64,000 nucleotides of DNA from an uncultured Gammaproteobacteria bacterium (GCA_963976795.1 CAXBLT010000014.1:2314-66313), one strand, 5' to 3'. Positions 17,894-56,681 are shown, numbered from the stretch's first letter. The notes: generated by a model from the sequence alone, not told the origin. Translations and numbers: made by a program.

Positions 17894-20388
<2,495 letters not shown>

Positions 20389-21190: not shown

Positions 21191-21922
21191 TCATTTTCTT
21201 AGGTGTTCAAATAATCCATACTGCCACTGTCTTAGCGCCATTACGACTGTTGTCCCATTGCGTTCATCTAGTGATAAACGCGCATCGGTGTCATTTAACT
21301 CGTTAAATTCTCTAATCAGCTTTTCCATTTTCTTTTGGAAAACTGCATTGGAGCTATTAGCCAACATCCCATTAACAACTAATAGACGTTCATTTTCTTT
21401 ATTAAACCGGGTATTGAAAAAATCTTGTTCTACTTTGGTTTGAAAAAACTTTTGAATAGGGCCATTTTCGAGCCAGGCAAAATTTGAGGCGACTAATAAC
21501 TTGATACGATTTTTGGGTAATAACTCAATGATTTTAAGTTTATCCAGTTTTGCCAACAAGCGTATAGCCTCTATCTCAGAAATTTTGTAATAGGTAGTTA
21601 TTTCATCCAGAGTCCAGCGATTTAGTACGCAGACAGTAACCAGTAAAAGAGTCAGGTTATTTGCGATTTCTTTTTCTTGCTCTTCATTGAGTTTGCTCAG
21701 ATGTTGTTTATCTTCTTGCATGAGTTTTAAAAGATCGGACAATTCCATATTCATGCACTGACATAGTTGCTCCAGTCGTTTCAAGGTAAAGTTCTTTTCA
21801 GAGAACATACGTTTTATACTGGCCTCAGATAAACCGATCTCTTTGGCAATATCGTTATAGGTTAAGCCATGTGCCTTAAGCGCTTTTTTAAGTGTAATGA
21901 TAAGGTGATGTGTTTGTGCCAT
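21191..21922 (-). CDS. XRE-family HTH transcriptional regulator
   Basis: HTH at N-terminus (LTYNDIAKEIGLSEASIKRMF); likely start at MAQTHH (21922) rather than ORF-track start 21982; divergent from lplT-aas fusion. Confidence 0.65.
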   Translation of the reverse strand: MAQTHHLIITLKKALKAHGLTYNDIAKEIGLSEASIKRMFSEKNFTLKRLEQLCQCMNMELSDLLKLMQEDKQHLSKLNEEQEKEIANNLTLLLVTVCVLNRWTLDEITTYYKISEIEAIRLLAKLDKLKIIELLPKNRIKLLVASNFAWLENGPIQKFFQTKVEQDFFNTRFNKENERLLVVNGMLANSSNAVFQKKMEKLIREFNELNDTDARLSLDERNGTTVVMALRQWQYGLFEHLRK

Positions 21923-22055
21923 TGGGATATGCAAGGTAGTGATTAATGATACTAATAGAACACATAAGTAATACAGATACAATATAAGTTGTTTATTACA
22001 ATACTAATTATTAGTCTCCAGGGACTTACTGAAGCAGTGTTAAAGGATATATCAC

Positions 22056-25000: not shown

Positions 25001-25508
25001 TTCATTAGAAGAATTGGGAACTGGTGAAGATGGTCTAATCTTAATCGGTGGTAGTCAGGTGATGCTGGGTTATCTGGATGATGAAGAAAAGACTAATGAA
25101 GTGATCACGATTCTTGATGATAAACGTTGGTATAAGACTGGTGACAAAGGTCATCTCGATGAGGATGGATTCTTGAGTATTGTTGATCGTTATTCACGCT
25201 TTGCTAAACTTGGCGGGGAAATGATTAGTCTAACTGCGGTTGAAGAAGTAGTTAGAAATGCTTTAAATGAGCCAGAGCTAGAATTGCTTGCAGTGAATCT
25301 CCCCGATGAAAAGAAAGGTGAAAAAATAATCCTCATGATCACAAAAGAAATTGAGCTTGCTAATGTTAAAAAGGCAATGTTGGATTCAGGTGCGAACCCA
25401 TTAATGATTCCTGCTGAGGTGAAAGTTGTTGAAGAAATACCAAAGCTGGGTAGTGGTAAGACTGATTTTAAGGGGGCTAAGAAATTGCTGTTTGATAAAA
25501 ATGTATAA
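22056..25508 (+). CDS. aas: tri-domain fusion: MFS lysophospholipid transporter (LplT-like) + PlsC acyltransferase + AMP-binding acyl-ACP synthetase (Aas-like)
   Basis: 1150 aa; 12-TM MFS N-terminus; HX4D-like acyltransferase motif NHISWIDW; AMP-binding motifs SSGSEGTPKGV and YGATETT. Confidence 0.8.
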   Translation: MKTLFKYSGFLPYIIVVFLNAFVDLGHKIIIQNTVFKIYDGQEQIFLTAIVNALILLPFILLLSPAGFCSDKFPKNKVMRISAWVAVGITLCITLFYYLGWFWPAFAMTFTLALQSAFYSPAKYGYIKEMVGKDNLARANGLVQATTTIAILAGIFVFSILFEQFLIDSIYSDTSSLLMNIAPIGWGLVAFSIIELGLAYMLPQKHPVDEEMKFDLKEYSRGNYLRSNMGVVLDREVIFLSIIGLAIFWAISQVMLAAFPAYAKETLGITNTIIIQGILACAGMGIMLGSIIAGRISRTHIETGMIPVGSIGIAICLLILPSLDNAYLQAVLFFGWGMFGGFLLIPLNSLIQFHAEEDELGRVLAGSNLIQNTVMLTFLGLTVLFAFYGMNSLGLFNILLVVAVVGTIYTAYKLPQSLVRFIVSYIIGHRYRLQVLGLKNIPEQGGVLMLGNHISWIDWGIIQMASPRPIRFVMIRNIYERWYLKWFLDIFNVIPVSAGASKGALQKINESLNNGDVVCLFPEGTISRTGQLGEFQRGFEKAAEEANAVILPFYLRGLWGSWFSRSSEKLKNLRSSGIKHDIIVAFGETLPIDTTTDELKKRVFDLSIDSWEHYTSDLPSIGTAFIDTAKRNSDELTVADSLAGPLNGNKFLTGVICFSRLIKKYSKEQNVGLLLPTSSAGAIANMSAILCGKTVVNLNFTASREALQGSVTKAGIKTVYTSRKFMEKLAKKGIDLNDAFSDSQFIYMEDLKTEISKVTGLCTLITVMLLPAAVLKFLYCKKVDINTPAAILFSSGSEGTPKGVMLSHRNIMANLKQISDMLNTQDTDVVMASLPLFHAFGITVTTFMPLVEGIPMICHPDPTDAVNISKAIAKYRATIFCGTSTFLRLYTKNKRIHPLMLESLRIVVAGAEKLSPDVRDAFKLKFNKDIYEGYGATETTPVASVNIPDALDVNYWSVQLGNKQGTVGMPLPGTSFRIVDPDSLEELGTGEDGLILIGGSQVMLGYLDDEEKTNEVITILDDKRWYKTGDKGHLDEDGFLSIVDRYSRFAKLGGEMISLTAVEEVVRNALNEPELELLAVNLPDEKKGEKIILMITKEIELANVKKAMLDSGANPLMIPAEVKVVEEIPKLGSGKTDFKGAKKLLFDKNV

Positions 25509-43595: not shown

Positions 43596-44083
43596 ATGAT
43601 CGCTGTCAGGATCTTTGAGATCACCTTTCCTATCTTTGCGATAGTTGCAGCAGGCCTGTTTTACGCTAAGAAATATAGACCGGATATGGTGCTTCCCAAT
43701 CGTATGAATATGGATATATTCATACCTTGCCTGCTATTTAGTGTCTTGATCGAACGAGGTGGTATTTCTGGGCTATTTGGAGGTTTGGCGCTAGCAATTA
43801 CTTTGGTCATCCTGCTCTACAGAGGCGATTGCTGCCGTGCGCCGTTATCTTCCTTTGATACGGGAAGATGCAGAGAGCGCTTTTACGATGCTTGGGCGCG
43901 GCTATTTTGCCTGTGTTTATGACGATTTGGTCGAACTGGATATACAAATGCAATGTCTGCGATAAGCAGTTGAAAATGGCTAACCAGTCTAATGTGATTT
44001 GTCAATGGCCGACGGGGTTTTTGGGTATCGGGCCGGTGGTGGCAAGGGGCTCAAGAATGGGCGGCATATGTTGGGCTGCTTAG
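43596..44083 (+). pseudogene. decayed AEC (auxin efflux carrier / malate permease) family transporter remnant
   Basis: only ~70 N-terminal residues resemble AEC transporters; frame then breaks; remaining ~500 bp is conspicuously GC-rich (~50%) with scattered short ORFs. Confidence 0.4.
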
Positions 44084-44309
44084 GCCTGGTGTCGAGACAA
44101 CATTCCAGCGGCGGCAAGGATACTTTGTTAGGAATGGGTAAGTGCGGTAAGCCTATCTACACACGTTGTTAATTCACGGCGTGCGAACGGTGTATGGACT
44201 GCTCTATCTGGGAAATATTTTTCAGTTGGTAATTAATGGTTTCAATGATAAATCGGCGGTTCAGAGAAAGAGGAAATTGCAGCGTTTAATGAAGATCTGA
44301 ACCGTGCTC

Positions 44310-45662
44310 TTATTTAATCCATTCCAGCCCAATGATGACATCCTCTGCAGATTGAAATCGTTCGTCTGGTTCTTTCGCTAATAAACCATCTATCAATGGT
44401 TGGTATTTAGCCAAATGGGTAGGAAGATGTGGGATTGGCGCGTTTATGTGCATTGATATTAGTTGTGCTACCGATTTAGCGATGTAGGGGCGTTCGTTTG
44501 TTAGCATCTGGAAAATCATAATACCAAGACTGTATAGATCACTGCGATGATCAAAAGGCATGCCGGCACCTTGTTCTGGACTTATATAGTAGGGTGTGCC
44601 AACGATATGATTGTTGACCGTTATATCCTCCACGTCTCCCGTTAAATTTTTTGCAGCGCCAAAATCGGTGATTGTTAATGTGTCATCGGCTCTAAATAAA
44701 ATATTACCGGGCTTTATATCTCGATGAACGATATTCAATTCATGTACGGCAACTAAGCCTAGGCACATTTCACGGATGTATTCGATTGCTTTCTCTAATT
44801 CAATACCATGCTTAAGTTTTTTAGTTAAGTCACCACCAGGAAAATGTTCCATTGCAATATAAGCAAAATCTGATGCAAATGCCCGCTCATAAATAGAGAC
44901 TACATTTGGATGGTCAAGACACGATATTAACGTGTACTCTTGCATAAATCGTTTTAATGCAATGGGGTCTTCGTGGCCTTCGGTAAACATAACTTTCAAG
45001 ACAACTTCATTGTTTTCTTCTATTGGCTTGGCTAAAAATACGGTTGACATACCTCCGCGACCAATCTCTTTGAGTAGCTGATAGCCAGGAACGACAAGCC
45101 CAAATTTTTCTAATTGCTTATTCGTAGTAGAAAAATCAGCCGTCTCCCCAGAGATGTCAAAGAAATCATCCAGGTTAACATCATCTTCATCTTGAAAAAG
45201 TAAATCAGGTAATGGTGGTGTTCCAACAATTGTTGCCTCATCGACTTCTACATTACTTGTGATTAAGGTTTGTTGTTTATCTGCAAGAGAAAAAATATCA
45301 TCTAGTGTTGTTTTAATTGTGTATTCAGATATATCTTCTTTATCTATAAAATCTATTGCACCAGCTTTTAGTACGCGGACAGCAACCTTTGTATTACCTT
45401 CAGCTGTTAACATCAGAACAGGTGGCATACCAACAATTGAATTGAAATGCACCATCCAACCCAGACCATTTTCTCTTCCAAGCCCCAGGTCATAATCAAG
45501 AATGACTAGGTCAATTTCATCCCAAACAAAATCATCACTAGGTAATCTTTGACTAACAGGGTCATATTCTACGACCTCTACATCACTATATGTATTTTTT
45601 ATATAGTGAATCAATAATTTGCGGTAATCCGCCGAGTCATCAATGAGTAGTATGCGTGACAA
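44310..45662 (-). CDS. response-regulator receiver domain fused to Hanks-type Ser/Thr protein kinase (last gene of chemosensory operon)
   Basis: 450 aa; REC residues DD..D(LVILDYDLG)..T..K present; kinase GxGxxG (GRGGMSTV), HRDIKPGN, DFG, SPE motifs. Confidence 0.85.
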   Translation of the reverse strand: MSRILLIDDSADYRKLLIHYIKNTYSDVEVVEYDPVSQRLPSDDFVWDEIDLVILDYDLGLGRENGLGWMVHFNSIVGMPPVLMLTAEGNTKVAVRVLKAGAIDFIDKEDISEYTIKTTLDDIFSLADKQQTLITSNVEVDEATIVGTPPLPDLLFQDEDDVNLDDFFDISGETADFSTTNKQLEKFGLVVPGYQLLKEIGRGGMSTVFLAKPIEENNEVVLKVMFTEGHEDPIALKRFMQEYTLISCLDHPNVVSIYERAFASDFAYIAMEHFPGGDLTKKLKHGIELEKAIEYIREMCLGLVAVHELNIVHRDIKPGNILFRADDTLTITDFGAAKNLTGDVEDITVNNHIVGTPYYISPEQGAGMPFDHRSDLYSLGIMIFQMLTNERPYIAKSVAQLISMHINAPIPHLPTHLAKYQPLIDGLLAKEPDERFQSAEDVIIGLEWIK

Positions 45663-45744
45663 TAGAAGCTATCCTGGTGAGCTTATTAAATATCAGGTTA
45701 GTAAATTAATGAAATAAATAATATTATTCAACAAGATGTAGTTT

Positions 45745-48700
45745 TCAAACTAGTAAGCTGTGAACATGATCTAATAAATCATCTTCTGAAAAAGGTTTGG
45801 TCACATATATATTGACCCCAGCCGCTTCGGCTTGTTTTCTGTGTTTGTCCGTTGAGCGTGATGTTATCATAATTACAGGGATGTCTTTTGTGTTTTCAAG
45901 ACCGCGTACATGTGAGGTCAATTCCATACCATTCATTCTTGGCATTTCCATATCAACCAGCATGATATTTGGTTTTTTATTCTCGATGATTCCAACAGCT
46001 TCCAGACCATCTTTGGCTGTCCTGACATCAAAGCCTGCATCCTGGATAACCTGGGTGAGAGCACGTCTGGCACTGAGAGAATCATCGACTACTAGGGCTA
46101 CAGGCAGTGCACGATGAATATTTGAGTGGGTCAGTTCATCAGGTTTGTCTAAAATCGTAACTGGTGCTCGAATTAATTCAGGTAAATCAATAACGGGTAT
46201 GACACTACCATCGCCCAGGATAGTCGCTCCAAGCATGCCCTTGATGTTATTAATATATTTCCCCATGGACTTAATAAAAAGGTCTCGTGTATCAACTACT
46301 TCTTGTATATAAATAACATGATTCAATTCTTCATCACGGATAAGCAAGGCCGGTCTTGTCTCTCTCGTATCACCTCTTCTATCTTCGGGTAAATTTAATA
46401 AGGATTCTAGGGATTGCATTTTAAGTTTTTCGCCATCAACTTCACACATAAGGCCATGGTCAGTCTCAATAATTTGTGAATCACTTGGGTGAAGGATTTT
46501 TTCTATACCGTGATTAGATACGGCAATTATATTATTTAAGTGGCGTAATAATAAAGCGTGAGATGACATTAACGTTAATGGCATTCTTAATTCAATTAAA
46601 CACCCCTTGTTCTCTTTAGACTCGATATGAACGCTACCTTTCATTGCTAGAAGTTCAGTGTGAACGATGTCCATACCAACGCCACGGCCAGAAGTTTGTG
46701 TTGCTTTCTCTCGTGTTGAAAAACCAGGGTTTAAAATAAGTCTGTTAATCTTGTTCTCAGAAAATTGTTCATCTGGCCTTAATAAACCTCGTTTGATAGC
46801 TGTATCGATTATATCTTTTCTATCAAGACCTGAGCCATCATCCTGACATTTAACAAGAATTTGAGTGCCTTCTCTGACAAAAGTAAGTTGCAGCTTTCCT
46901 TCCGGGTCTTTTTTCAGGTGTATTCGTTGTTCACGATTTTCAATACCATGGTCTATGGCGTTTCTAAGTATATGCATCAACGGGTCTATCAACTTATTTA
47001 AAATGTCGCTATCTATAAGCGTGTCAGAGCCAATAATTTCGAGAGAGACTTCTTTCTTTGTGCTTCTACATGTTTGTCGCACAATACGCTGTAACCTAGG
47101 AGATATAGTCTTAATAGCTACCATGCGGGTGCGCATAACAATTCCCTGGATTTCATTATGTAGACGTAACTTATCGACTAATAATTCATCCAGTTCACGT
47201 AAGTCATTTGCAACCTCTTGATTTAATTCATATGAGTCATCTGCAGCTTCGACAATGCGATGAGTAACGGTATGTAGTTCGTTATATTCTTCAAGCTCTA
47301 ATGAGTCGAAAACTGTATCTTGGTCAGCACTCTGTTGATTGTTTTGAACAGCGCTTTTTACATCTACTTGAACCTCCAAGTCTGAAGCTAGATTTTTCAC
47401 GCTATTTTGGTGCTCAACAAGTCGTTGTGACTGCATTGTTGATAGTCTTACCCTTTCTTGAAGTTGAGATGTGACAATCATGGTTTCACCAAGAAGTCTT
47501 AATATTTCATCGATTAGATTAGCCGGAACGCGTAATATAGCACTGGCATCACTATCATCGTTTTCTTTTTCAATATCCTCTTCTTTGGGTTTTGCAGTGA
47601 CCGGTTCAATAGTTTCATTTTCTTCAGATTTAAGACAATCTACGCCTTCCTTTTCTAAGCGTATTGCCCAGTCCAATATACTTTGCAACACGTTTTGACT
47701 GTTTGAGGGGGCTGTTCCACGTTCTAACAAAGCTTCACTCATTTCTTCTAAACAATCTGCTGCATCCATGAAGCTAGCTGCTAAGGCAGGAGAGGGGAGG
47801 TGATTTAGATCATTGAGTGAACTCATTATGTCTTCAAGCTGATGGGTTAAGATGGCAATACCTTTTACACCAACGGTATTTGCCGCACCTTTTACTGTAT
47901 GAGCAATGCGTTGTGCTTTATGTACTTCGCTGATGTCACCACTGCCATCAATCAGGGCTTGAATTGCAGCTGAAAAACCCTCTGTCTGTCCGGGTAGTTC
48001 CTGCAATAAACCATCGAGTAATTCTTGGTTTATATCTTCCGGAAGCTCAATAGAAACATCTTCACTTTTTGCTTCTGTCTGTCTTGCTTCTTTATGAATA
48101 TCAACCTCTGAGACATAGACCGCTTTTAAGAGATTAATCAGTGCCGGTGCAACACCGGTCATTAAATTATTCGGTAATTCTTTATCTTTTACGATATCTA
48201 CAAGTGCACTGCTAAAAACATTATCTCCTGGGTTTTGTAGATAAGATAAAACACTTTGAGGCCATAAAGTAAGAAGTGACAATTGATGTTCTGTAAATTT
48301 AGCTTCGTTATTTGAAAAATAATTAATATTATTCGTGAATACAGAAGCTATTTGGTACAAGCCATCCATCTCGGCTGCCTGGCATGCACTACCAAAACGC
48401 TCGACATGAAGAGCATACTGGGATAGAGAATCAACGATTACTTCAGCCTCGGTATCTTCATTTTTTATTAATTCAATATGAGATAAGATTTCATCGCGGA
48501 TTATAGTTGCTTCTTCTTGTAGCATTTTAACAAGATCTTTACTAATGCCATGTGGTGCAGCGAGGATATCTTTTGTTTCAATCACATCATCTAATATTTC
48601 ATTGAATTCTTCCTGTAATCTTTCGTTCGTCGAGACCGTTGTTGAATTCGTAGGGGCAGCTATATTAGCTGCTTCCGGTTCAATGACCTCATTTGCTTCA

Positions 48701-49881
48701 GGAGGAGCACCCATCATCTCTTGGATAATATCTAGGTCAGCTTGTGCCATAGGGTTTGGCCATTGCTCATCTGATAGATACTCAAGAATGTTTTGAATCG
48801 CATCAGTTGAGTTTGGATTTACTAAATAATTTTTAACAAGTGACAGCCATTGCTTAATATGTTGAATATATTGTTCTAAAGATGATTTGCTATCATCTGC
48901 TATGTCAGATAAAAATTCTTTTATAAGAAAACAGACGTCCTGAAACCCAAGTAGATCCAATTCTCCTGCGGCTAGTCCGATTTCTTCAGAATTGTTTGCA
49001 ACATTGAGAATGCTGTCTTTATTATGTGGCTCTACCTCTGCGACAGAACGCTGGAGTTTATTAAATACATTAACCAGTGCGTCTGGTATGTTTGGTGAAC
49101 TATCCTTAGTTTGGACGCCAAACATCTCTAATAAAACATTAGCATCGGTTTCAGCGAGGGGTGTGGGCCATTCATCTTGTTTTAAGTTAGCAACTAATGC
49201 GGAAGCAGCGGCAGAATTGTTTGTGCTTGACAAAAATAACTCAGCTTGATTGAGCCATTCTAACACCATGTTCTTCTGTGTGTCGTTTATTCCATTATTA
49301 TCTTGTTCAAGATCGGTTATATTCTCTTGAAATAACAAACAAACATCTAGAAACCCCATTAGGTTTTCTTCGTTAAGAGAAAGTAATAACTCTTCTAACT
49401 TTTCATTTAAAAGGCCTAATTCAAGGGTTTTGTTATTTCTTATGTTGGTGATGATTTCTGAGAATAAAGTTTGAAATTTATTAGCTTCTTTACTAAGCAT
49501 GTCGTTTAAAACATTTAGATCTGCTTCTTCTAGTGATGTACTTAAATCTGAATTATTAAAGAAATTAGTGAGAGCATCTGCGGTGGAATGTGTGCTGTTT
49601 TTTAAGTGATTAGAAGCAAGGATCGGCCATCGTTTTAATAACTCAAGTTGAGTGCTGCTCAAGGTATTATTGGTTTCAATAATATCGGAATATGTTTCCT
49701 GAACTAAAAAACAAATATCCTGGAAGCCTAATCGTTTATTTTCACCTGCTGCAATTCCCAAGGCTTCGATGTTATTTAGCGCATATTGTAAAGATGCCGT
49801 ATCAATATTATCTTGGCTGGGAATAGATTGGGAAACCTGAGCAATGAATAGCTCTAGATTAGAGTTGATTTTAGAACTCAT
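45745..49881 (-). CDS. ChpA/PilL-like hybrid CheA histidine kinase: four FimL-like N-terminal repeats + Hpt + HATPase + CheW + C-terminal REC
   Basis: 1378 aa; Hpt HTVKGAANTVGV; repeated ~110-aa modules each ending W(P).P.....D...L.EM; C-terminal receiver VALVVDDS...MLVDMEMP. Confidence 0.85.
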   Translation of the reverse strand: MSSKINSNLELFIAQVSQSIPSQDNIDTASLQYALNNIEALGIAAGENKRLGFQDICFLVQETYSDIIETNNTLSSTQLELLKRWPILASNHLKNSTHSTADALTNFFNNSDLSTSLEEADLNVLNDMLSKEANKFQTLFSEIITNIRNNKTLELGLLNEKLEELLLSLNEENLMGFLDVCLLFQENITDLEQDNNGINDTQKNMVLEWLNQAELFLSSTNNSAAASALVANLKQDEWPTPLAETDANVLLEMFGVQTKDSSPNIPDALVNVFNKLQRSVAEVEPHNKDSILNVANNSEEIGLAAGELDLLGFQDVCFLIKEFLSDIADDSKSSLEQYIQHIKQWLSLVKNYLVNPNSTDAIQNILEYLSDEQWPNPMAQADLDIIQEMMGAPPEANEVIEPEAANIAAPTNSTTVSTNERLQEEFNEILDDVIETKDILAAPHGISKDLVKMLQEEATIIRDEILSHIELIKNEDTEAEVIVDSLSQYALHVERFGSACQAAEMDGLYQIASVFTNNINYFSNNEAKFTEHQLSLLTLWPQSVLSYLQNPGDNVFSSALVDIVKDKELPNNLMTGVAPALINLLKAVYVSEVDIHKEARQTEAKSEDVSIELPEDINQELLDGLLQELPGQTEGFSAAIQALIDGSGDISEVHKAQRIAHTVKGAANTVGVKGIAILTHQLEDIMSSLNDLNHLPSPALAASFMDAADCLEEMSEALLERGTAPSNSQNVLQSILDWAIRLEKEGVDCLKSEENETIEPVTAKPKEEDIEKENDDSDASAILRVPANLIDEILRLLGETMIVTSQLQERVRLSTMQSQRLVEHQNSVKNLASDLEVQVDVKSAVQNNQQSADQDTVFDSLELEEYNELHTVTHRIVEAADDSYELNQEVANDLRELDELLVDKLRLHNEIQGIVMRTRMVAIKTISPRLQRIVRQTCRSTKKEVSLEIIGSDTLIDSDILNKLIDPLMHILRNAIDHGIENREQRIHLKKDPEGKLQLTFVREGTQILVKCQDDGSGLDRKDIIDTAIKRGLLRPDEQFSENKINRLILNPGFSTREKATQTSGRGVGMDIVHTELLAMKGSVHIESKENKGCLIELRMPLTLMSSHALLLRHLNNIIAVSNHGIEKILHPSDSQIIETDHGLMCEVDGEKLKMQSLESLLNLPEDRRGDTRETRPALLIRDEELNHVIYIQEVVDTRDLFIKSMGKYINNIKGMLGATILGDGSVIPVIDLPELIRAPVTILDKPDELTHSNIHRALPVALVVDDSLSARRALTQVIQDAGFDVRTAKDGLEAVGIIENKKPNIMLVDMEMPRMNGMELTSHVRGLENTKDIPVIMITSRSTDKHRKQAEAAGVNIYVTKPFSEDDLLDHVHSLLV

Positions 49882-49935
49882 CAGAATGCACTCATACAGT
49901 GATGATAATAGTATTGAATATTAGTATATCGATTA

Positions 49936-51324
49936 TTAAATATTCATCTCATCATCAGCTAGTCTGAATACGCCGACCGATGCCACTAATTGCATGGCTT
50001 GCTCCACTAGTTCATCAGTATGTACAGTTTGATCTTGCAAATGGGCTCCTGTTTTACGAACACTATCTCGAATAACGTCTGTGCGCTCTCTCAGTTGATT
50101 ACTGGTTTTGGCTTGTGCAACAGCATGTTCTGCAATTTTTTGTACCATACTTACTAATTCAGCTGTTGTAGATTGCGTTTCTTTCATTTGTGAACCAGCA
50201 GTTTCTGCTAACTGACTACCACCGACAACCTGGGTGGTAAGCTCGTTCATTGTGTTGACTGTATTTACAGTTTCAATCTGAATATTATTCACTAACGTGC
50301 CAATTTGCGAAGTTGCTTCTCTGGCATTTTCAGCAAGGCGTTGCACTTCGTCAGCAACGACAGCAAAGCCGCGGCCGGCTTCACCGGCAGATGCTGCGTG
50401 CATGCTGGCATTAAGAGCAAGAATATGTGTTCTTTCAGAGATATTATTAATTAAGTTTACAGCAGTACTAATTTCTTGAGATCGTTCACCAAGGCGTTTA
50501 ATACGTTTTTCAGTTTCATGGATGGTGTCACGTATATTATTAATGCTATCTACAGTATCACCCACTGTACTCATAGCAGTTATGGTGGTTTTTATTGCAT
50601 CTTCGGCAGCAATATTAGATTGCTCTGCTAAACGGGCGATTCTGGACATGGTTCCTGTAGCCGATTTCAATTCTATTGCTGCTTTTTCAACTTCATCCTG
50701 TTCCTTATTAGCGAGTAACAATACATTATCAGATTGAGATTTAACCAGGTTTGACGTTTCTGCAACATCACCAGAGATTCTTGTTACTTCGTTTAATACG
50801 CTAGTTGTTTCAGAAGTCATTAAATTTAATGCATCTGCTAATGGACCAGTAATGTCTTCATTTACTTTTGCCTTTATGCCAAGGTTTTTCTGAGCCATTT
50901 GTGCAACTGTTTCTAATAGCGCCACAATGGAGTCATTTAACTGTTCATTTTCATCTTCTATGCTCATCAAAACAGAAACGCGTTCATTTAACATAGTATC
51001 AATTGATGTGCTGATATTCTCAAATTCATCTCCGCTTTTAACACCGACGCGTGCTTCTAGATCGCCTTCTGATATTTTCTCCATAATGTTCATTAATCTT
51101 TCGATAGGCTTGTAGAGAGAATTAACGAAATAAACGGTGCCGATAAAAGTAATAGTCAACATTACAAAAACACTTTTAACCCCATTATTTAAAATTTGTG
51201 TGATAGCTTCACTATGCTCTGCACTTGATATTGCGAAATACAAACTAAGGAGAATGCTCAAGTAGGCAATATTGATGAATAAGACCCCTAAAAATAATTT
51301 GTTTTTGATTTGCATCTTCATCAT
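49936..51324 (-). CDS. methyl-accepting chemotaxis protein, PilJ-position, essentially no periplasmic domain
   Basis: 462 aa; two TM helices ~20 aa apart, HAMP, MCP signalling hairpin (ALNASMHAASAGEAGRGFAVVADEVQRLAE). Confidence 0.85.
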   Translation of the reverse strand: MMKMQIKNKLFLGVLFINIAYLSILLSLYFAISSAEHSEAITQILNNGVKSVFVMLTITFIGTVYFVNSLYKPIERLMNIMEKISEGDLEARVGVKSGDEFENISTSIDTMLNERVSVLMSIEDENEQLNDSIVALLETVAQMAQKNLGIKAKVNEDITGPLADALNLMTSETTSVLNEVTRISGDVAETSNLVKSQSDNVLLLANKEQDEVEKAAIELKSATGTMSRIARLAEQSNIAAEDAIKTTITAMSTVGDTVDSINNIRDTIHETEKRIKRLGERSQEISTAVNLINNISERTHILALNASMHAASAGEAGRGFAVVADEVQRLAENAREATSQIGTLVNNIQIETVNTVNTMNELTTQVVGGSQLAETAGSQMKETQSTTAELVSMVQKIAEHAVAQAKTSNQLRERTDVIRDSVRKTGAHLQDQTVHTDELVEQAMQLVASVGVFRLADDEMNI

Positions 51325-51381
51325 GATTGTTGCTCTCAGTTGTTGATTTAAGTTACTTAGTTCTTATTGCGAATCAGTTTT

Positions 51382-51921
51382 CTAATCGGAATAATCCTTG
51401 GTCATGTTTTTAATAAATGCGTCGTAATCAATTTCAATCCATATCTCTTGTTCTAGAAAAAATGTTTCTGATATATAATCGGTAAGAATTTCAGGGGTGT
51501 CATTAGGTGTTGATGTTTTAATGAATTTCTCATTATCGATATCAATTGAGTTTGGTAGGTCATCTATATATGTGGCAAAGGCACTTTCGCCTCTATCGAT
51601 AATTAGTAATGTATCATCTTTTTTATCATCGCCAGTTTGTTCAAGTATTTTTTTTAAATCAAATACTGGTACAAGTATACCTCGTAGATTTATCAATCCT
51701 TGTATCCATGGTGGCGTGTTTGGCATGGAATAAATTATTGGTCTTTTAACCACTTCACAGATGGTGAATTTGTTGATGAGTAAATTTATTTCTCCTAGAC
51801 GAAAGCCGAATCGTAGATTTAAGGATTGACCGTCATCAACAAACCCTTGGTATGGATCAAAGTGATCTGCCTCAGACGAAATATTAACGAGTTCAGGTTC
51901 TGTCGTTTGATCGGGTGTCAA
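51382..51921 (-). CDS. CheW-like coupling protein (PilI-like)
   Basis: 179 aa CheW domain. Confidence 0.8.
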   Translation of the reverse strand: MTPDQTTEPELVNISSEADHFDPYQGFVDDGQSLNLRFGFRLGEINLLINKFTICEVVKRPIIYSMPNTPPWIQGLINLRGILVPVFDLKKILEQTGDDKKDDTLLIIDRGESAFATYIDDLPNSIDIDNEKFIKTSTPNDTPEILTDYISETFFLEQEIWIEIDYDAFIKNMTKDYSD

Positions 51922-51973
51922 TTTATATGCCTATATCAAAATCTAATCAATTTGTTAGTTAGTTGCAGCTTGA

Positions 51974-52339
51974 TTATTCATATGCCTTCAGTTGATCCAG
52001 GATTTGTTCCTTCGTGTAGGGTTTTGATACAAGGTCTTTGCCTCCTTGCATTTTGGCCCAGACGCGATCTGCTTTTTGGCGTTTGCTACTCACAAAAACA
52101 ATAGGAATTGTTTTAGTCGCACTATCATTTGTTAATGTTCTCGTTGCTTCGTAACCATCCATTTGATCCATGACGATGTCCATAAAGATAATGTCGGGTT
52201 TTTCACTTTTTGCTTTTTCAATAGCATCACTGCCATTTGATGCGGTAATGACTTCTTTTTCTGTATCACTAATGATCTTTTCAAGGTTTGATAAATCTGT
52301 TGATGAATCATCAACAATCAGAACTTTACTTATCGGCAT
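51974..52339 (-). CDS. pilH: single-domain response regulator PilH
   Basis: 121 aa; C-terminal DRVWAKMQGGKDLVSKP closely parallels P. aeruginosa PilH DKVWGKRQGARDYLTKP. Confidence 0.75.
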   Translation of the reverse strand: MPISKVLIVDDSSTDLSNLEKIISDTEKEVITASNGSDAIEKAKSEKPDIIFMDIVMDQMDGYEATRTLTNDSATKTIPIVFVSSKRQKADRVWAKMQGGKDLVSKPYTKEQILDQLKAYE

Positions 52340-52404
52340 TATTTCCTCCGGGCTAAAATGTAACTAGTAAATCTTATTAAGTTTAAATCTTATGGATAGA
52401 TAAA

Positions 52405-53205
52405 TTAAGAGACAGCACTGGCTCTTATCGGCTCATTCAAATACTGAGAAACAACTTCTTTGAATATTGTTTGACCAACGGGTTTAATTAAGTAGGTATC
52501 ACAACCGGCCAGTTTCCCTTTTATTTTATCAGCGGGTGATGAGTTTCCTGTAAGCATAATAATTGGAGTGTTTTTTGCCTTGCCTTGTTTAATGACTTTA
52601 CAAATCTCATAACCATCCATGCCAGGTAAAATAACATCGAGAAAAATTATTTGATATTCATTTGTATTAATTAATTCAAATGCTTCTTCACCAGATTCAG
52701 CAAAATCAACACGCTCCGTAAAAGGTTTTAGAGCCTGATCCATTTGTATTCTTACAGGTAAACTGTCATCAATAACAAGTGCTATAGAATGTTTTACGTC
52801 ATTGTTTTTTGATATTGGCGTCGCAGTTTGTTCTAAAATTGCAACTTCTTCTTTGACTGTAAACTCTTTAGCTGTGACCTGATCTAAAATGCTTATTGCT
52901 CTGGATGCAATTAAAGGACGTCTTACCTGATAATGTTCTGTCTTGAACTCGCGATCTTTAGAAACTAATACAGAAGGAGGATCTTTTATATCTTTGGCTT
53001 CAAGTGTATTTCGATATTTACGCCATTGAATCAAAGATAAAGGTTCATCAGCATTCACCATTAAAATTTGTGGCGAATCATTAATGTCCGTCGCCGAGTA
53101 AGCTGTATGTCTTGACTGCGAATGTTGAAAAGCGGCGTTTAAACGTTTTTCTTCAATAGATGGAATACCAATTAAGGCTACCGTTATATTGTTATCTGCA
53201 TTCAC
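52405..53205 (-). CDS. pilG: PilG-like response regulator with ~140-aa N-terminal degenerate (pseudo-)receiver extension
   Basis: C-terminal REC with PilG-like DKIKGKLAGCDTYLIKP; N-terminal half has receiver-like strand pattern but lacks the phospho-Asp. Confidence 0.6.
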   Translation of the reverse strand: MNADNNITVALIGIPSIEEKRLNAAFQHSQSRHTAYSATDINDSPQILMVNADEPLSLIQWRKYRNTLEAKDIKDPPSVLVSKDREFKTEHYQVRRPLIASRAISILDQVTAKEFTVKEEVAILEQTATPISKNNDVKHSIALVIDDSLPVRIQMDQALKPFTERVDFAESGEEAFELINTNEYQIIFLDVILPGMDGYEICKVIKQGKAKNTPIIMLTGNSSPADKIKGKLAGCDTYLIKPVGQTIFKEVVSQYLNEPIRASAVS

Positions 53206-53227
53206 GTTGTCAATTCCCTATATATTC

Positions 53228-54232
53228 TTAGGTGTTTTCGATACTTAAATAAACCAGTGTTTGATTTAACAATTGGTATGCAATTTCGCCATAAGTCATG
53301 GGGCCCGTCATACCTGGAGTTGTTTTTCCTTCTAGTTCTGAATGAAGATAATTTAAGAGACAGTTACAAGAAAAGGTCGTGCCATTTTCCAATACCGGCA
53401 GGGAAGACTGGAAGGCAGAAACATAGTCATCAAGAGGAGCGGATAATTTGTACTCAACACCACTAAATACAGGGGCATAGAAAGAAACTGTTTTTTTCTT
53501 TTCATCAATTTCCTGGAATGATACATTTATCATTGCACCAGAATAATCTGCCACGAGAGGTAGTTTGATATCTACATTAATGCCTAATAAATAATCAGCA
53601 AGATTTTGTTCTATACCATTAACGAGGCAGGAGGATGCAGAAAAACCTGTTTCAGGGAATTCAATAACATCACCACCACCTTGATTCATAATATTAACAA
53701 TTCCAATATTAGCTACTTTATTGGGTGCTAAAGTGACATGCATTGCCACAGCTTTATCTGAAGATGTTTCAGTTGTACCGCCATTAAATACAGTGGGTTT
53801 GACGCTGCCTTGGTCATCAAGGTGTATGCCGGTAACCCAGCCAGCAATAGGTTTAATAAACATCTCTTCATATTCGGGTGCATTTTGCGCATAAGAGAGA
53901 TGTAAATCACTAAATGCAGGGATTAATAATATGGTGAACCCGTCATCGGGCGAGTCTTTCGCAATATTTTTTATACTATCCGTATTATAAAATTTAACTT
54001 GGATTCGACGAGCAACGCCAGGATCAAGTTCTGAAGCATAAATCATGTCGCGAGTTGTTATACCTCCGTCAGAAGACATGAAGTAAGGGATTGAGCCGCC
54101 AATCCAGCGACCTTTTGGTAATTGTTTTAGAAGGTTTTCATCTCCGGCAAGCCATAATACCTTACCTGCTTCGATAGCTGCCTTCGCTTGATCAACGGTT
54201 AGCATTTTTGTGTGTATATCAGATGTGGACAT
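53228..54232 (-). CDS. hypothetical cytoplasmic protein, possibly FIST (N+C) sensory domain protein
   Basis: 334 aa, no TM; C-terminal PMTYGEIAYQLLNQT reminiscent of FIST_C signature; co-operonic with che genes. Confidence 0.4.
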   Translation of the reverse strand: MSTSDIHTKMLTVDQAKAAIEAGKVLWLAGDENLLKQLPKGRWIGGSIPYFMSSDGGITTRDMIYASELDPGVARRIQVKFYNTDSIKNIAKDSPDDGFTILLIPAFSDLHLSYAQNAPEYEEMFIKPIAGWVTGIHLDDQGSVKPTVFNGGTTETSSDKAVAMHVTLAPNKVANIGIVNIMNQGGGDVIEFPETGFSASSCLVNGIEQNLADYLLGINVDIKLPLVADYSGAMINVSFQEIDEKKKTVSFYAPVFSGVEYKLSAPLDDYVSAFQSSLPVLENGTTFSCNCLLNYLHSELEGKTTPGMTGPMTYGEIAYQLLNQTLVYLSIENT

Positions 54233-54244
54233 TTTAACCTACTC

Positions 54245-55798
54245 CTATGCGGCTATTAACTGATCAAGTTCAGTTCTGTGTTTGTTTTGATGTTTCACAA
54301 AATATTGCCGAAGTATTTTTGCCCCAGCAGTTCGTGATGCATCGGATGGATTATTTTCGATTGAAATTCGAATGCTTTGCAGCATCATTTTGAGTGCTAC
54401 TATGTCCGTATTTATGACCAACTCACCATTAATTAATCGTTGCCAACTTGGATGGGTCTCTGGCGGGATAGTAATTTGGTTGTTATCATTGTTGTCAGTA
54501 GGTAAGACTTGGGGTGCTATCCCATTTAACTGAAGTATTTCATTTTGTGATGAAGCTTGATGTTTAAGAAAATATTGGCGTAATATTTTTATTCCCGCCA
54601 TGCGATTAGTTTCAGACGTGTTTTTTTCAACAGATTGTCGTACTCTTTCCAACATCATCTGTAAACCAACTGTATTTGTCTGAATTTTTAACTCACCAAT
54701 AACCAGTTGTTGCCAACATGAGGCATTCTCTGACGGTAATATGACATCTGTTTTTGCAGAAGTAATGGGTATCGATACTCGAATTCCCATTTGTTGTGAT
54801 TCTGAACTTAGCCGCGCCTTATGTTTTATAAAAAATTGCCTAAGTATTTTTGCACCTGCTTGCCGAGATGACTCCGATGGGTTTCTTTCCACCGATTGGC
54901 GTACACGCTCCATCATCATTTGCAATGCAACATTTGATGTTTGAATTTGTAGTTCAGCATTAATGATTTTTTGCCAAACGGCATCATTCACACCTGGAAA
55001 AACTGAAGACTCAGATGCAAGTATGCCTATTTGTTCTTGATTTGATGCTTGAGTTGAAATGCCAGAAATTATGGCAATGTCGGCTTTGTGTTTATCTTGA
55101 TTTTTGATGAAGTATTGGCGCAATAATTTTGCAGATTTAATGCGTGAAACTTCAGAAGGGTTCTTTGCGATATCTTGACGAATACGTTGCAGCAGCATTT
55201 GTAGACCAACAGCTTTTGTCTTAATAATTTGATCGCCATTGATGATTCGTTGCCAATTATCATGTGTTTCTGGCGGAATATTAGTGTGTTCAATTAATTC
55301 AAAAGATTTCGTGTCAAAATAATCCGTAGGGCTTGACGTAGACGTGTTGGTTGCATTTGCAACATTTGATAATGCATCGGCAAGATTATCAGCTCCTGCT
55401 CCGGTACGTTCACTTACTTCACGAATCTCAGCCGCAGTAACACCAGAAATTTTCGCTGCGGCTTGGTTAGATTTTGTGTTGTTAAGGATATCGATTAAAA
55501 ATGCTTCCATCTCGTTGGTCAGTTGGGAACCTGAGGGAGCCCAACTCTTATTACTCTCTACCGTGCTAGGTGCAGGTACGTGTAAATACGTACGCATTCC
55601 GGATATTGGTAAATGGCGCAATTTAATGGTTTGAATATCGTCATTAGATTTTGAATTGCCGAAAAAGGATTTCTTCTTCTTTGAACCGTGAGCAATAGCG
55701 ATATCTATACGATTTGAAGGTCGATCCACCTCAACTGTATTTATATGCCATTCATCATCTAAATTTAATAATAGTGTAAGTATTTCTGTATCTTGCAT
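54245..55798 (-). CDS. tandem-repeat protein: N-terminal ISL3-transposase-N-like (cysteine-less) domain + four ~90-aa repeats; first gene of chemosensory operon
   Basis: 517 aa; repeats start at W182, W275, W362, W452 with consensus WQ.IINGEL.I.T..VALQMM.ERVRQSVE.NPSE.SR.AGAKILRQYFIKH; N-terminus VEVDR...IKLRHLPISGMRTYLHV mimics zf-ISL3 pattern without Cys; no DDE domain. Confidence 0.7.
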   Translation of the reverse strand: MQDTEILTLLLNLDDEWHINTVEVDRPSNRIDIAIAHGSKKKKSFFGNSKSNDDIQTIKLRHLPISGMRTYLHVPAPSTVESNKSWAPSGSQLTNEMEAFLIDILNNTKSNQAAAKISGVTAAEIREVSERTGAGADNLADALSNVANATNTSTSSPTDYFDTKSFELIEHTNIPPETHDNWQRIINGDQIIKTKAVGLQMLLQRIRQDIAKNPSEVSRIKSAKLLRQYFIKNQDKHKADIAIISGISTQASNQEQIGILASESSVFPGVNDAVWQKIINAELQIQTSNVALQMMMERVRQSVERNPSESSRQAGAKILRQFFIKHKARLSSESQQMGIRVSIPITSAKTDVILPSENASCWQQLVIGELKIQTNTVGLQMMLERVRQSVEKNTSETNRMAGIKILRQYFLKHQASSQNEILQLNGIAPQVLPTDNNDNNQITIPPETHPSWQRLINGELVINTDIVALKMMLQSIRISIENNPSDASRTAGAKILRQYFVKHQNKHRTELDQLIAA

Positions 55799-56681
55799 CT
55801 ATGCACTCCTTAGGCATATATACATCTACTCACACACTTCCGATACGTCCTTAATTTACGATAGTTTACCTGTAGATTAATTGTGAAAAATCTTATGGAA
55901 CTTGTCGCTTCCCCTGCCTTATAAAACTCGTACTAAATACCTAAACAACTATTTTCATTAAAGATATAAAGCGAAGTGTGCTCTTAAAATTTATTATTAT
56001 ATAATTCTCTGTTACGGACTTATTTGTACCATTAATTAATTTCAAAGTCACGTTTGTTGAAAATAATCATTTTCTTTCAATGGCTTAGATAAGTTTTTGA
56101 AAGGTAATTAGTATTTTGAGTATTTCTTCTAAGTACAAGTAAATCAAATAGATATTAGTGTTAACTAATGTGTTTAGTAATCCATAGTGTTTGTAGTTAG
56201 CGACACATTAATTTCTTTAATAGGGTGAGATGTGTAGTCGAATATATACCCTTAATTAGGTAGTGATTTATAAATGATGGGGCTTTTTTTAGATTACTAC
56301 AACACAGGCTCATCAAAAGAAGGAATCATATCTATGATAGAGCAACTTGAAGACAGAACTTTTCATCAATAAACAAGAGGCTTGGCAGTATTGCTCAGCA
56401 GATTTAGTAATCTGATGAATATATAATTGTTTAGTTCGATAATGATCTTGTCTCTGGAATGAGCACATATAAACAGAATGAAGATACAAGTTTCTGAACA
56501 TCCTTCTTAAAAAATATTAATTGGGAAGAAACTCCTGGCACCACCATTGAATTACACCATAGATAATAAACATTCGGTTTCAGAGTCAGGTTTTAAATCT
56601 TAAACTTGAAATACGGTGGTTATAGCTGAACTTAAATCAGCGACATCAGCTTTATGAGTGTTGTGATTAAATATTGTTAGT

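Follow-up and report, generated by a model that had tools for sequence, protein, structure and literature searches.

A Pil-Chp-lineage chemosensory operon joined to a receiver-Ser/Thr kinase and a FIST-fold protein cassette in mostly uncultured Gammaproteobacteria

Where would a chemosensory pathway obtain its signal, and on what would it act, if its receptor has no periplasmic domain, its adaptation enzymes are missing, and its operon ends in a Ser/Thr kinase? The question is raised by eight genes in a 64,000-nt stretch of DNA (the window) from an uncultured Gammaproteobacteria bacterium. A first-pass annotation had read them as an atypical Pil-Chp-like system; we examined their domain content, relatives, and genomic surroundings.

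Layout, boundaries, and conservation of the operon

ORF analysis identified eight minus-strand ORFs at 44310-55798, separated (from gene 8 to gene 1) by 12, 22, 65, 52, 57, 54, and 82 nt, in agreement with the original description of eight co-directional, tightly packed genes. Protein lengths were identical in independent gene calls on identical metagenome contigs. The eight genes are probably co-transcribed. The features of the locus, in order from the 5' side of gene 8, are as follows.

55799-56681, strand not assigned: upstream region, 883 nt, AT-rich and non-coding, 5' of gene 8; presumed promoter/regulatory region
54245-55798, minus: gene 8, 517 aa; ISL3-transposase-like head (aa 1-148), then four ~70-aa four-helix modules with disordered linkers
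55073-55279, minus: gene 8 module 1, aa 174-242 (all four modules located by alignment and an HMM built from the repeats)
54788-54997, minus: gene 8 module 2, aa 268-337
54527-54739, minus: gene 8 module 3, aa 354-424
54257-54469, minus: gene 8 module 4, aa 444-514
53228-54232, minus: gene 7, 334 aa; DUF6976 protein with a FIST-like fold
52405-53205, minus: gene 6, 266 aa; conserved N-terminal domain of ~115 aa (nt 52831-53205) and PilG-like receiver (nt 52465-52779)
51974-52339, minus: gene 5, 121 aa; PilH-like single-domain response regulator
51382-51921, minus: gene 4, 179 aa; CheW-type coupling protein
49936-51324, minus: gene 3, 462 aa; MCP with two TM segments, HAMP, and a signalling domain of 40H-type length
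45745-49881, minus: gene 2, 1,378 aa; ChpA-like CheA
48118-49806, minus: gene 2 N-terminal modules, four of ~100 aa (aa 26-588)
47734-48024, minus: gene 2 Hpt, single, with H661
46165-47541, minus: gene 2 core (dimerisation, HATPase, CheW)
45763-46095, minus: gene 2 C-terminal REC, with D1310
44310-45662, minus: gene 1, 450 aa; receiver, acidic linker, and Hanks-type Ser/Thr kinase
45336-45653, minus: gene 1 receiver (D8, D9, D56, T86, K108)
44352-45083, minus: gene 1 kinase (K223, HRD313-315, N320, DFG333-335)
43596-44309, plus: downstream boundary, a 108-aa ORF (43596-43922) and then 387 nt of non-coding DNA; outside the system

Pfam searches of all eight proteins confirmed the domain content: REC and Pkinase in gene 1; Hpt, HATPase_c, CheW, and REC in gene 2; HAMP and MCPsignal in gene 3; CheW in gene 4 (E = 5.5e-19); REC in gene 5; an N-terminal domain without a family followed by REC (aa 143-247) in gene 6; and DUF6976 over the full length of gene 7 (E = 1e-137). 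No Pfam family scored above threshold in gene 8.

The AT-rich gap of ~880 bp reported at one end of the operon measures 883 nt at 31% GC, compared with 40% for the 64-kb window. A long gap (at least 380 nt) precedes the genes in 13 of 16 related loci, its sequence having no detectable conservation. In the 883-nt region itself, Rfam and tRNA searches returned no match, and promoter-like sites and short repeats were found at no more than chance level. The decayed GC-rich pseudogene described at the other end was not confirmed in that form: we found a 108-aa ORF with a weak Mem_trans match (E = 0.08, profile positions 2-50 of 343), after which the reading frames break (at ~108 codons) and non-coding DNA follows. 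This ORF may be what is left of the N-terminus of an AEC-family transporter. The operon had been thought consistent with an acquired module, but its GC content is 0.38 against 0.40 for the window, housekeeping genes lie on either side, and neither tRNA genes nor mobility genes were found around it. Recent acquisition is thus unsupported, and what is seen is long-term modular gain and loss alone.

The same gene order occurs in at least 14 other genomes, including that of the cultured Methylohalomonas lacus. The full eight-gene order is present at loci L004-L012, L014, and L017; loci L019, L020, and L092 lack the small CheY (the PilH-like gene) only, and L087 has this order too, its gene 8 truncated where the contig stops. 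The eight-gene order is retained in loci with DUF6976 identities from 59 to 87% and in hosts of 34-67% GC. We conclude that the operon is real, no product of chance, and conserved in a clade of mostly uncultured Gammaproteobacteria; we found no description of this system in the literature searched.

The chemosensory core and the receiver-fused kinase

The affinities of genes 6-2 were assessed against verified P. aeruginosa and E. coli proteins, a reference set that represents two classes (Tfp and F7). Gene 5 scored 113 bits against P. aeruginosa PilH (41% identity), 89 against PilG, and 55 against E. coli CheY, and the gene 6 receiver scored 74 bits against PilG (39% identity), 58 against PilH, and 50 against CheY. 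For gene 3 the scores were 171 bits with PilJ and 67 bits with Tar, and the PilJ alignment covers 347 collinear residues (aa 111-457 with 331-677) at 33% identity. For the kinase core of gene 2, P. aeruginosa ChpA gave 244 bits and E. coli (F7) CheA gave 177, a ranking that applies to these two reference classes only. The class of gene 4 is ambiguous (49 bits with E. coli CheW, 43 bits with PilI). Best matches to PilH, PilG, PilJ, and ChpA over their E. coli counterparts, together with the same gene order, support the assignment of genes 6-2 to the Pil-Chp (Tfp) lineage that the first-pass annotation had made, including its identification of gene 5 as PilH. The genes also show two hallmarks of the Tfp class: two CheY-like regulators, one PilG-type and one PilH-type, lie upstream of CheW-MCP-CheA, and the MCP is PilJ-type and of 40H length, though the periplasmic domain of PilJ is absent.

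As read from its sequence, gene 3 has two hydrophobic segments with a loop of only ~19 residues between them, and therefore no periplasmic domain, as had been proposed. From the hairpin tip (E315) to VFRL455 are 140 aa, or 20 heptads per arm; the 40H class is assigned from this length, not from class HMMs. Neither a methylation-consensus motif nor a C-terminal pentapeptide was found in the protein. The reported absence of a methyltransferase/methylesterase pair held for the operon and for the whole 64-kb window, where tblastn queries with CheR and CheB from E. coli and PilK from P. aeruginosa gave receiver-domain matches only. With neither CheR nor CheB in the window and no methylation-consensus motif in the MCP, the locus does not encode a canonical adapting chemotaxis pathway.

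Gene 6 had been described as a PilG-like regulator with a pseudo-receiver. The PilG-like part of this description stands, but comparison of the N-terminal domain with REC by hhalign gave no support for the other part. This domain has invariant D53, S82, and P97 and no acidic pair, a motif pattern from which it is possibly a pseudo-receiver. It has no Pfam match at E <= 1, PATAN included, and gene 6 was accordingly not classed as a PatA-type (PATAN-REC) regulator.

In gene 2, residues 620-1377 are collinear with ChpA 1676-2473 (362 bits), from the last Hpt to the C-terminal receiver. The protein has one recognisable Hpt and a C-terminal REC, no P2 domain was detected, and H661 and D1310 are invariant in all 12 orthologues compared. 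A CheA with multiple Hpt domains and a REC is typical of the Tfp class and also of the ACF class (PMC10782961). The four N-terminal modules are mutually homologous (probability 99-99.9) and not detectably Hpt-like. The earlier reading of gene 2 as a ChpA-like CheA-REC with four FimL-like modules is therefore right about the ChpA collinearity, the C-terminal receiver, and the existence of four repeats, but unsupported as regards FimL. In precomputed Pfam assignments, FimL_C and FimL_2nd are listed for ChpA and not for gene 2; BLASTP of the modules against ChpA gave nothing at E <= 1e-3; and hhalign gave a probability below 1%, compared with 81% for an Hpt control. The FimL-like identity thus found no support with any of these methods, all at the sequence or profile level.

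Gene 1 is the receiver-Ser/Thr kinase fusion that had been reported, with an intact receiver and a complete set of kinase catalytic residues. All 15 orthologues keep the catalytic residues, with a single substitution (HCD for HRD) in one of them, and the kinase is apparently active. The receiver is intact in 11 of the 15, degenerate in L010, and absent in L006-L008. Homologues of the fusion down to 41-47% identity still lie directly 3' of a CheA-REC gene, and an orphan receiver-kinase is known at L093. The proposal that the CheA phosphorelay feeds into Ser/Thr phosphorylation is therefore plausible for this locus but cannot be generalized: four of 15 orthologous kinases have a missing or degenerate receiver and one fusion is an orphan, so phosphotransfer from CheA cannot be the only link.

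The FIST-fold cassette and the proposed wiring

Gene 7 is a DUF6976 protein whose fold corresponds to FIST_N plus FIST_C, in line with its earlier description as FIST-like; at the sequence level it matches neither Pfam FIST nor FIST_C. Gene 8 had been called a tandem-repeat protein, and it contains four ~70-aa repeats. In its AF2 model (pLDDT 76.5), the ordered domains score 80-90 and the linkers, which are disordered and Ser/Thr-rich, score below 50. The head is modeled as a beta-sheet with HTH-like helices. Matches of Zn_ribbon_ISL3 and HTH_Tnp_ISL3 to the head fall below threshold in the window's protein but exceed the gathering score in one of its relatives. Gene 8 is not an ISL3-family transposase, as only the N-terminal domains are matched, mostly below threshold, and profile searches found no DDE domain (DDE_Tnp_ISL3) in it or in any relative examined.

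The first-pass annotation had treated genes 8 and 7 as two novel lead genes of this operon. They prove instead to be an autonomous, widespread, and undescribed two-gene cassette, found without Che genes in many phyla. Across these phyla the gene 8-type partner carries one to six copies of the ~70-aa helical module, which is itself previously undescribed, often behind a head derived from an ISL3 transposase; in the minimal partner, the 70-aa module stands alone and no DNA-binding head precedes it. Cassette, Che block, and kinase come and go independently of one another. At one syntenic site the complete set, the cassette alone, or the kinase alone is found, the cassette outlasts loss of the Che block at L089, and at L091 the Che block and kinase occur without genes 8 and 7, accompanied all the same by a gene 6-type regulator. 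The cassette and the Che-kinase block are thus not obligately coupled.

We think it fairly probable that the locus is a composite signalling operon in which three evolutionarily separable modules are wired together: module A (genes 8 and 7), which pairs a module protein bearing a DNA-binding-like head with a DUF6976 protein of FIST fold; module B (genes 6-2), a Pil-Chp-lineage core whose MCP has no ligand-binding domain and which has no adaptation enzymes; and module C (gene 1), a Hanks-type Ser/Thr kinase with a receiver at its N-terminus. The routes of phosphotransfer, the way in which information passes between module A and the other two modules, and any targets are inferred. The MCP-CheW-CheA complex would act as a non-adapting switch. 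CheA would autophosphorylate on His661 and pass phosphate to four receivers: its own; that of the PilH-like gene 5, which may be a sink or an antagonist; that of the PilG-like gene 6, whose N-terminal domain may be a protein-interaction output; and that of gene 1, where phosphorylation would gate Ser/Thr phosphorylation of targets. Since no sensory domain is present in the MCP, gene 7 with its FIST-like fold is the most plausible source of a cytoplasmic signal; by analogy with NosP, it would supply this input either by itself or while bound to gene 8, whose several modules would serve as a scaffold. A broader form of this idea, which we offer tentatively and consider doubtful, is that DUF6976 and the ~70-aa module constitute an unrecognised, phylum-spanning two-protein sensory module, which in this gammaproteobacterial clade would have come to feed a cytoplasmic signal into a Pil-Chp-type array that is read out by Ser/Thr phosphorylation. 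If true, the operon would encode a three-tier cascade from a FIST-fold sensor through a His-Asp phosphorelay to a Hanks kinase, and the gene 8 protein, with its several module copies, would be a scaffold bringing more than one sensor molecule into the array.

Information could also flow the other way, with module A as the output: the kinase or the PilG-like regulator would modify gene 8 or gene 7 and change DNA binding, making a chemosensory-type transcriptional switch. The ISL3-type zinc-ribbon and HTH-like head of gene 8, which has weak fold matches to HTH transcription factors, would suit such a switch, as would its Ser/Thr-rich disordered linkers, the long non-coding region 5' of gene 8 at most loci, and the lack of any other conserved neighbour that could be a substrate of the kinase. 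However, the minimal partner has no head, so the pair must have its core function in something other than DNA binding. Within the module, conserved Ser/Thr residues read as helix-capping motifs and are present in kinase-free lineages too, and no conserved upstream DNA motif was found. We regard an output role for module A as unlikely.

Slightly less probable still is a true regulator of type IV pili, a pared-down Pil-Chp system for twitching motility and polarity in which the N-terminus of gene 6 would act on the pilus motor like cyanobacterial PATAN and the kinase would be an added branch. Its cyanobacterial analogue shares this logic (PMC11181946), and the matches to PilG, PilH, PilJ, and ChpA and the identical gene order favour it too. 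However, neither the 64-kb window nor the syntenic loci, inspected to a distance of 10 kb, hold pilus genes, with the one exception of L091, where pilMNOP lie ~7 kb away, downstream of mrcA. As ponA/mrcA-pilMNOPQ is a common arrangement in Gammaproteobacteria, this proximity may be coincidental. The missing PilJ periplasmic domain and the absence of PATAN or any other Pfam match in the gene 6 N-terminus also speak against a pilus regulator.

A third possibility, which we consider improbable, is that the modules are functionally independent neighbours that occupy a common site, and perhaps a common transcript, but exchange no signals. The separate occurrence of each module, the three states of the one syntenic site, the Che-kinase block without a cassette, and the wide spread of the cassette without Che genes are all compatible with independence. 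Nevertheless, the gaps are tight (12-22 nt) and the order is invariant in at least 14 genomes of 34-67% GC with differing chromosomal neighbourhoods, which argues for selection on linkage, and the kinase is almost always receiver-fused and 3' of CheA-REC. Finally, it is highly improbable that the kinase or the whole locus is a PD-T4-6-type anti-phage defence element: gene 1 matches PADLOC PD-T4-6 models (up to 225 bits) and the NCBIfam MADS6 and PglW kinases, but the PADLOC matches are confined to the generic Hanks domain (aa 188-449) and equal a generic PknB match in score (224.7 bits), genes 8, 7, and 6 have no PADLOC match, the kinase carries a receiver and keeps its place 3' of cheA, and housekeeping genes, not a defence island, surround the locus.

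Comparison with known systems

Gene 8-type heads resemble the N-terminal region of ISL3-family transposases in matching both of its domains in the correct order, and some relatives of gene 8 keep the zinc-ribbon cysteines. In contrast to the transposases, the head is fused to one to six helical modules and always paired with DUF6976, and the gene 8 of the window has lost the cysteines.

The composite operon shares with P. aeruginosa Pil-Chp (pilG-pilH-pilI-pilJ-pilK-chpA-chpB) the order RR-RR-CheW-MCP-CheA and an MCP cytoplasmic domain collinear with that of PilJ and equal to it in length. It differs in having no PilK (CheR) or ChpB (CheB), no PilJ periplasmic domain, and one Hpt in CheA where ChpA has many. 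Four unrelated modules replace the FimL-like/Hpt array of ChpA, the PilG-like regulator has an extra N-terminal domain, and the receiver-Ser/Thr kinase and the DUF6976 cassette are added, with no pilus genes nearby.

In Wsp, a system of the ACF class, the receiver-fused output enzyme is the REC-GGDEF protein WspR. A Che core with CheA-REC and a receiver-fused enzyme at the operon end as presumed output are common to Wsp and the present locus. Here, however, the enzyme is a Hanks Ser/Thr kinase instead of a diguanylate cyclase, and CheR and CheB are absent; the two are set apart by description.

Cyanobacterial Tfp-class systems combine an N-terminal-domain-plus-REC regulator with a single-domain CheY and have no methylation enzymes (PMC11181946), so the absence of CheR and CheB here has a precedent in the class. 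One such system is Tax1/Pix (pixG-pixH-pixI-pixJ-pixL; Tfp), in which the first regulator has an N-terminal output domain and a REC, the second is a single-domain CheY-like antagonist (gene 5 is likewise single-domain), CheA has a C-terminal REC, adaptation enzymes are missing, and the gene order is the same (PMC11181946). Unlike in Pix, Pfam does not recognise PATAN at the N-terminus of gene 6, the MCP carries neither a photoreceptor nor any other sensor module, the hosts are gammaproteobacterial, and there is an extra kinase and FIST cassette; the likeness is one of description.

NosP is a stand-alone FIST-FIST_C auxiliary sensor that controls a co-encoded histidine kinase, and the NosP-NahK pair resembles the present locus in placing a stand-alone FIST-fold protein beside a histidine-kinase pathway without its own sensor (PMC8846402). 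Gene 7, by contrast, is a DUF6976 member that matches neither the FIST nor the FIST_C family of Pfam in sequence. Its constant partner is the 70-aa module protein and not a kinase. The type of system encoded here is thus known; what is new is the joining of a Pil-Chp-lineage pathway to a receiver-gated kinase and to the FIST/module pair.

Organization and genomic context of the operon

The eight minus-strand open reading frames proposed by the first-pass annotation were confirmed at 44310-55798, with gaps of 12, 22, 65, 52, 57, 54, and 82 nt between them, and the protein lengths are identical in gene calls from identical marine metagenome contigs (ENA, TARA). An NCBIfam search of the operon proteins added no specific names to the Pfam assignments listed here, in which the genes are numbered from the kinase end (gene 8 is first in transcription order).

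Gene 1, 44310-45662, minus strand: REC and Pkinase (receiver-Ser/Thr kinase fusion, REC-STK)
Gene 2, 45745-49881, minus strand: ChpA-like CheA; Hpt, HATPase_c, CheW, and REC, with about 600 N-terminal residues without a family
Gene 3, minus strand: MCP; HAMP and MCPsignal
Gene 4, minus strand: CheW
Gene 5, minus strand: PilH-like response regulator; one REC
Gene 6, minus strand: PilG-like response regulator; N-terminal domain of about 135 aa without a family, then REC
Gene 7, minus strand: DUF6976 across the full length (E = 1e-137); FIST-like fold
Gene 8, minus strand: multi-module repeat protein; no family above threshold

We refer to genes 8 and 7 as the cassette and to genes 6 to 2 as the Che core. 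The two hydrophobic segments of the MCP, as read from its sequence, lie only about 19 residues apart, and the MCP thus has no periplasmic ligand-binding domain, as had been claimed. The reported lack of adaptation enzymes also held, as neither a CheR domain nor a CheB methylesterase domain was detectable within the whole 64-kb window.

A DUF6976 profile, run against a single genome from each species, gave 571 loci, and we kept the best 80. Among these best 80 of 571 loci, the full order (repeat protein, DUF6976, response regulator, CheY, CheW, MCP, CheA, and kinase) recurs in L004-L012, L014, and L017. Other related loci have the order without the small CheY (L019, L020, and L092) or a matching order in which gene 8 is truncated by the contig end (L087). 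The hosts of the conserved order are gammaproteobacterial MAGs and the cultured Methylohalomonas lacus HMT 1 (L012), and host GC content across the conserved loci ranges from 34% to 67%. The system has no name in databases, its proteins being labeled “hypothetical,” “DUF6976 family protein,” or “protein kinase” in the source records with no system name, and we found no description of it in a literature search. REC-Hanks-kinase fusions as such appear in response-regulator censuses; literature searches on Che operons with REC-kinase fusions or FIST proteins yielded no relevant paper.

The window is ordinary core genome (dnaX, recR, mutL, miaA, hflX/K/C, purA, rnr, ffh, malic enzyme, dsbB, and sdhAB). 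The operon had been suggested to be an acquired module, but a recent island is not supported: its GC content tracks that of the host (0.38 for the operon versus 0.40 for the window), housekeeping genes flank it, and the window lacks mobility genes. No tRNA or Rfam matches were found near the operon. The flanking genes are not shared with the closest relatives (87% DUF6976 identity), which indicates that the operon has changed its surroundings in the course of evolution, by movement or rearrangement.

The AT-rich gap reported upstream of gene 8 is real (883 nt, 55799-56681), and a long, relatively AT-rich noncoding region (about 380-1,350 nt) occupies this position in 13 of 16 loci at any host GC content. 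The gap showed no sequence conservation by blastn against the upstream regions of relatives and had no Rfam or tRNA match and thus no known RNA family. It contains just short two-copy repeats, at chance level for AT-rich DNA, and scans for promoters and terminators did not exceed chance. Downstream of the operon, what had been described as a decayed pseudogene is a 108-aa open reading frame; its weak match to an AEC-transporter profile (first 50 positions, E = 0.08) suggests that it is possibly a remnant of such a transporter. A local GC spike (0.46) with a GC skew of +0.255 occurs at 44000-44499, in the noncoding stretch that separates this reading frame from the kinase gene's end, and searches detected neither an RNA family nor a terminator there. 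Elsewhere in the window, a single 1,150-aa open reading frame (22056-25508) combines MFS-transporter, acyltransferase, and AMP-binding domains. It looks like a fusion of a lysophospholipid transporter with an acyl-ACP synthetase/acyltransferase, which are encoded in E. coli by the adjacent genes lplT and aas. Among housekeeping genes, a 210-aa open reading frame without a Pfam match (20506-21138) lies next to a divergent gene for a 263-aa Cro/C1-type HTH protein (21191-21982).

The DUF6976 cassette and separable modules

DUF6976 is very conserved, with 4,510 homologues in a word-indexed search and identities of at least 50% across phyla. Using an HMM of the gene 8 repeats, we found that in 60 of 74 loci the gene directly preceding DUF6976 carries the same module of about 70 aa. 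The module occurs as a stand-alone 80-120-aa protein in Spirochaetota, Ignavibacteria, and Thiotrichaceae, as a single copy in Betaproteobacteria, where a head of about 160 aa precedes it, and in 3-5 copies in the Che-linked clade. It has no Pfam family, and literature searches found no paper on either the module or “DUF6976.” We conclude that this phylum-spanning pairing is the most novel element of the system, and the operon offers a handle on DUF6976 and its constant partner. Membership of gene 7 in the FIST family at the sequence level was not supported, as there was neither a Pfam match nor any hit in a PDB profile search.

A structure model of gene 8 has an N-terminal β sheet and helical head followed by four 4-helix modules on disordered linkers. 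The head of gene 8 and its relatives matches Zn_ribbon_ISL3 and then HTH_Tnp_ISL3 (above the Pfam gathering score in L016, below it in M. lacus and the window), and no DDE domain is present in any of these proteins. The simplest reading of the head is that of a DNA-binding region domesticated from a transposase. The gene 8 relatives of M. lacus (L012), L016, and L024 retain the CxxC and CxC cysteines of the zinc ribbon, which are lost in the window's protein; this shows a stepwise decay of the transposase-derived ribbon.

One syntenic site (aminotransferase, glycerate kinase, EipA, Polyketide_cyc2, and AAA protein) was found in three states. L088 has the Che genes and REC-STK, and its contig ends inside the MCP gene, with genes 8 to 4 beyond view; L089 (also numbered L013) has only the cassette and a 183-nt kinase remnant; and L093 has only an orphan REC-STK. 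The site is a natural deletion series, and its states (full system, seen in L088 only as far as the MCP gene; cassette only; kinase only) are ready comparative material. A further locus, L091, has a gene 6-type regulator (41% identical, full length), CheW, MCP, CheA-REC, and REC-STK without a cassette. The three-state site and L091 together indicate three separable modules: the cassette, the Che core, and the kinase. In L091 (252-11431), an extra 156-aa gene without annotation lies between cheA and the kinase gene. Just upstream of the L091 block are a CheB gene, a CheW, and a 191-aa MCP fragment, apparently a portion of a second che cluster. Some 7 kb downstream of the block, beyond argS, priA, and mrcA, lies pilMNOP.

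Proposed signal flow and its alternatives

The kinase residues K223, HRD, N320, and DFG of gene 1 are kept in all 15 orthologues (HCD replaces HRD in one), and in 11 of the 15 the receiver residues D8, D9, D56, T86, and K108 remain intact. The receiver is degenerate in L010 (18596-19894; Y, N, F, and R at the D9, D56, T86, and K108 positions) and absent from the kinase genes of L006, L007, and L008 (about 18540-19620; 285-312 aa), all with intact kinase catalytic residues. CheA-to-kinase phosphotransfer is therefore not the sole coupling in the family; for the window's protein, it is a sound hypothesis. A role in anti-phage defense was rejected, as the PADLOC PD-T4-6 matches reflect only a generic kinase domain and their scores equal those of PknB.

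The MCP-CheW-CheA complex would act as a non-adapting switch. Phosphate from CheA (His661 and Asp1310 of gene 2 are invariant among the orthologues compared) could pass to CheA's own receiver, to the PilH-like regulator, which would serve as a sink or antagonist, to the PilG-like regulator, with its N-terminal domain as a putative protein-interaction output, and to the gene 1 receiver, where it would gate Ser/Thr phosphorylation of putative targets. We favor the DUF6976 protein as the probable cytoplasmic input of the pathway, and gene 8 with its several modules may hold it in an array. This reading draws on the lack of a sensor domain in the MCP and on the precedent of NosP and similar stand-alone FIST proteins, which regulate histidine kinases encoded alongside them (PMC8846402).

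The autonomy of the cassette keeps three rival readings in play. The cassette may instead be a transcriptional output of the pathway, which we regard as unlikely. That the operon is a true pilus regulator is less probable still; its Che core has Pil-Chp affinities, and no pilus or flagellar genes were found in the 64-kb window. Mere co-location of the cassette, Che block, and kinase is the least probable, and REC-STK homologues down to 41-47% identity directly follow a CheA-REC gene.

Chemosensory pathways with non-motility outputs are known, and their inputs and outputs are mostly uncharacterized. We propose that the locus is a defined, conserved case of a Che-type phosphorelay hard-wired to a eukaryote-like Ser/Thr kinase, a wiring directly testable in cultured M. 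lacus.

Lineage of the Che core

We compared the Che core with PilG (an exact match to PILG_PSEAE), P. aeruginosa pilG-pilH-pilI-pilJ-pilK-chpA (L094), full-length ChpA (L096), and the E. coli che operon (L095). Gene 5 scored highest with PilH (113 bits, 41% identity; PilG 89, CheY 55), and the gene 6 receiver scored highest with PilG (74 bits, 39%; PilH 58, CheY 50). The MCP is collinear with PilJ over 347 residues (171 bits; Tar 67 bits). Residues 620-1377 of gene 2 are collinear with ChpA 1676-2473 (362 bits, E = 8e-106); its Hpt prefers ChpA Hpt domains, its kinase core scored 244 bits against ChpA and 177 bits against E. coli CheA, and its C-terminal receiver is 44% identical to that of ChpA. 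The class affinity of the gene 4 CheW is ambiguous. The C-arm of the MCP, from Glu315 at the tip to VFRL455, measures exactly 140 residues, or 20 heptads per arm, a length equal to the aligned part of PilJ, and the MCP sequence contains no methylation-consensus motif or tethering pentapeptide. The reference scores, MCP arm length, and identical gene order thus support the proposed Pil-Chp (Tfp) lineage, the references compared being Tfp and F7 only; CheAs with multiple Hpt domains and REC typify ACF as well as Tfp systems (PMC10782961).

Two finer domain claims fared less well. The N-terminal modules of gene 2 (aa 26-130, 158-257, 286-392, and 483-588) are true repeats (mutual hhalign probability 99-99.9%), with 1 to 4 copies across orthologues and no histidine common to them. 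They had been called FimL-like, a label that is unsupported: BLASTP against full ChpA and hhalign against a profile built from 57 sequences of the N-terminal 1,400 residues of ChpA gave no match (Hpt control 81%; the controls worked), and precomputed Pfam lists place FimL_C and FimL_2nd in ChpA and neither in gene 2. The modules had no Pfam match at E <= 1, a PDB sequence search was negative, hhalign against the protein's own Hpt gave no match, and they showed neither homology to nor co-variation in copy number with the gene 8 modules. The strongly conserved N-terminal domain of gene 6 has a beta-alpha pattern in receiver register, with D53, S82, and P97 invariant, R96-P97 in place of K-P, and the acidic pair absent. 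This motif pattern agrees with the earlier reading as a putative pseudo-receiver; profile comparison lends it no statistical support, with an hhalign probability of 0.3 and no Pfam match for a receiver or PATAN domain.

Our results confirm the observation of the first-pass annotation and support its interpretation in part. We read the system as a Tfp-lineage, adaptation-free chemosensory pathway with a REC-Ser/Thr-kinase output and an attached FIST-fold cassette. The gene order of its Che core is identical to that of the P. aeruginosa pil-chp locus. The operon is also a gammaproteobacterial counterpart of the cyanobacterial Tfp-class systems and so bears on when methylation-based adaptation is dispensable: in those systems, as in the operon, the methylation enzymes are absent and a regulator with an N-terminal domain and REC is paired with a single-domain CheY (PMC11181946).
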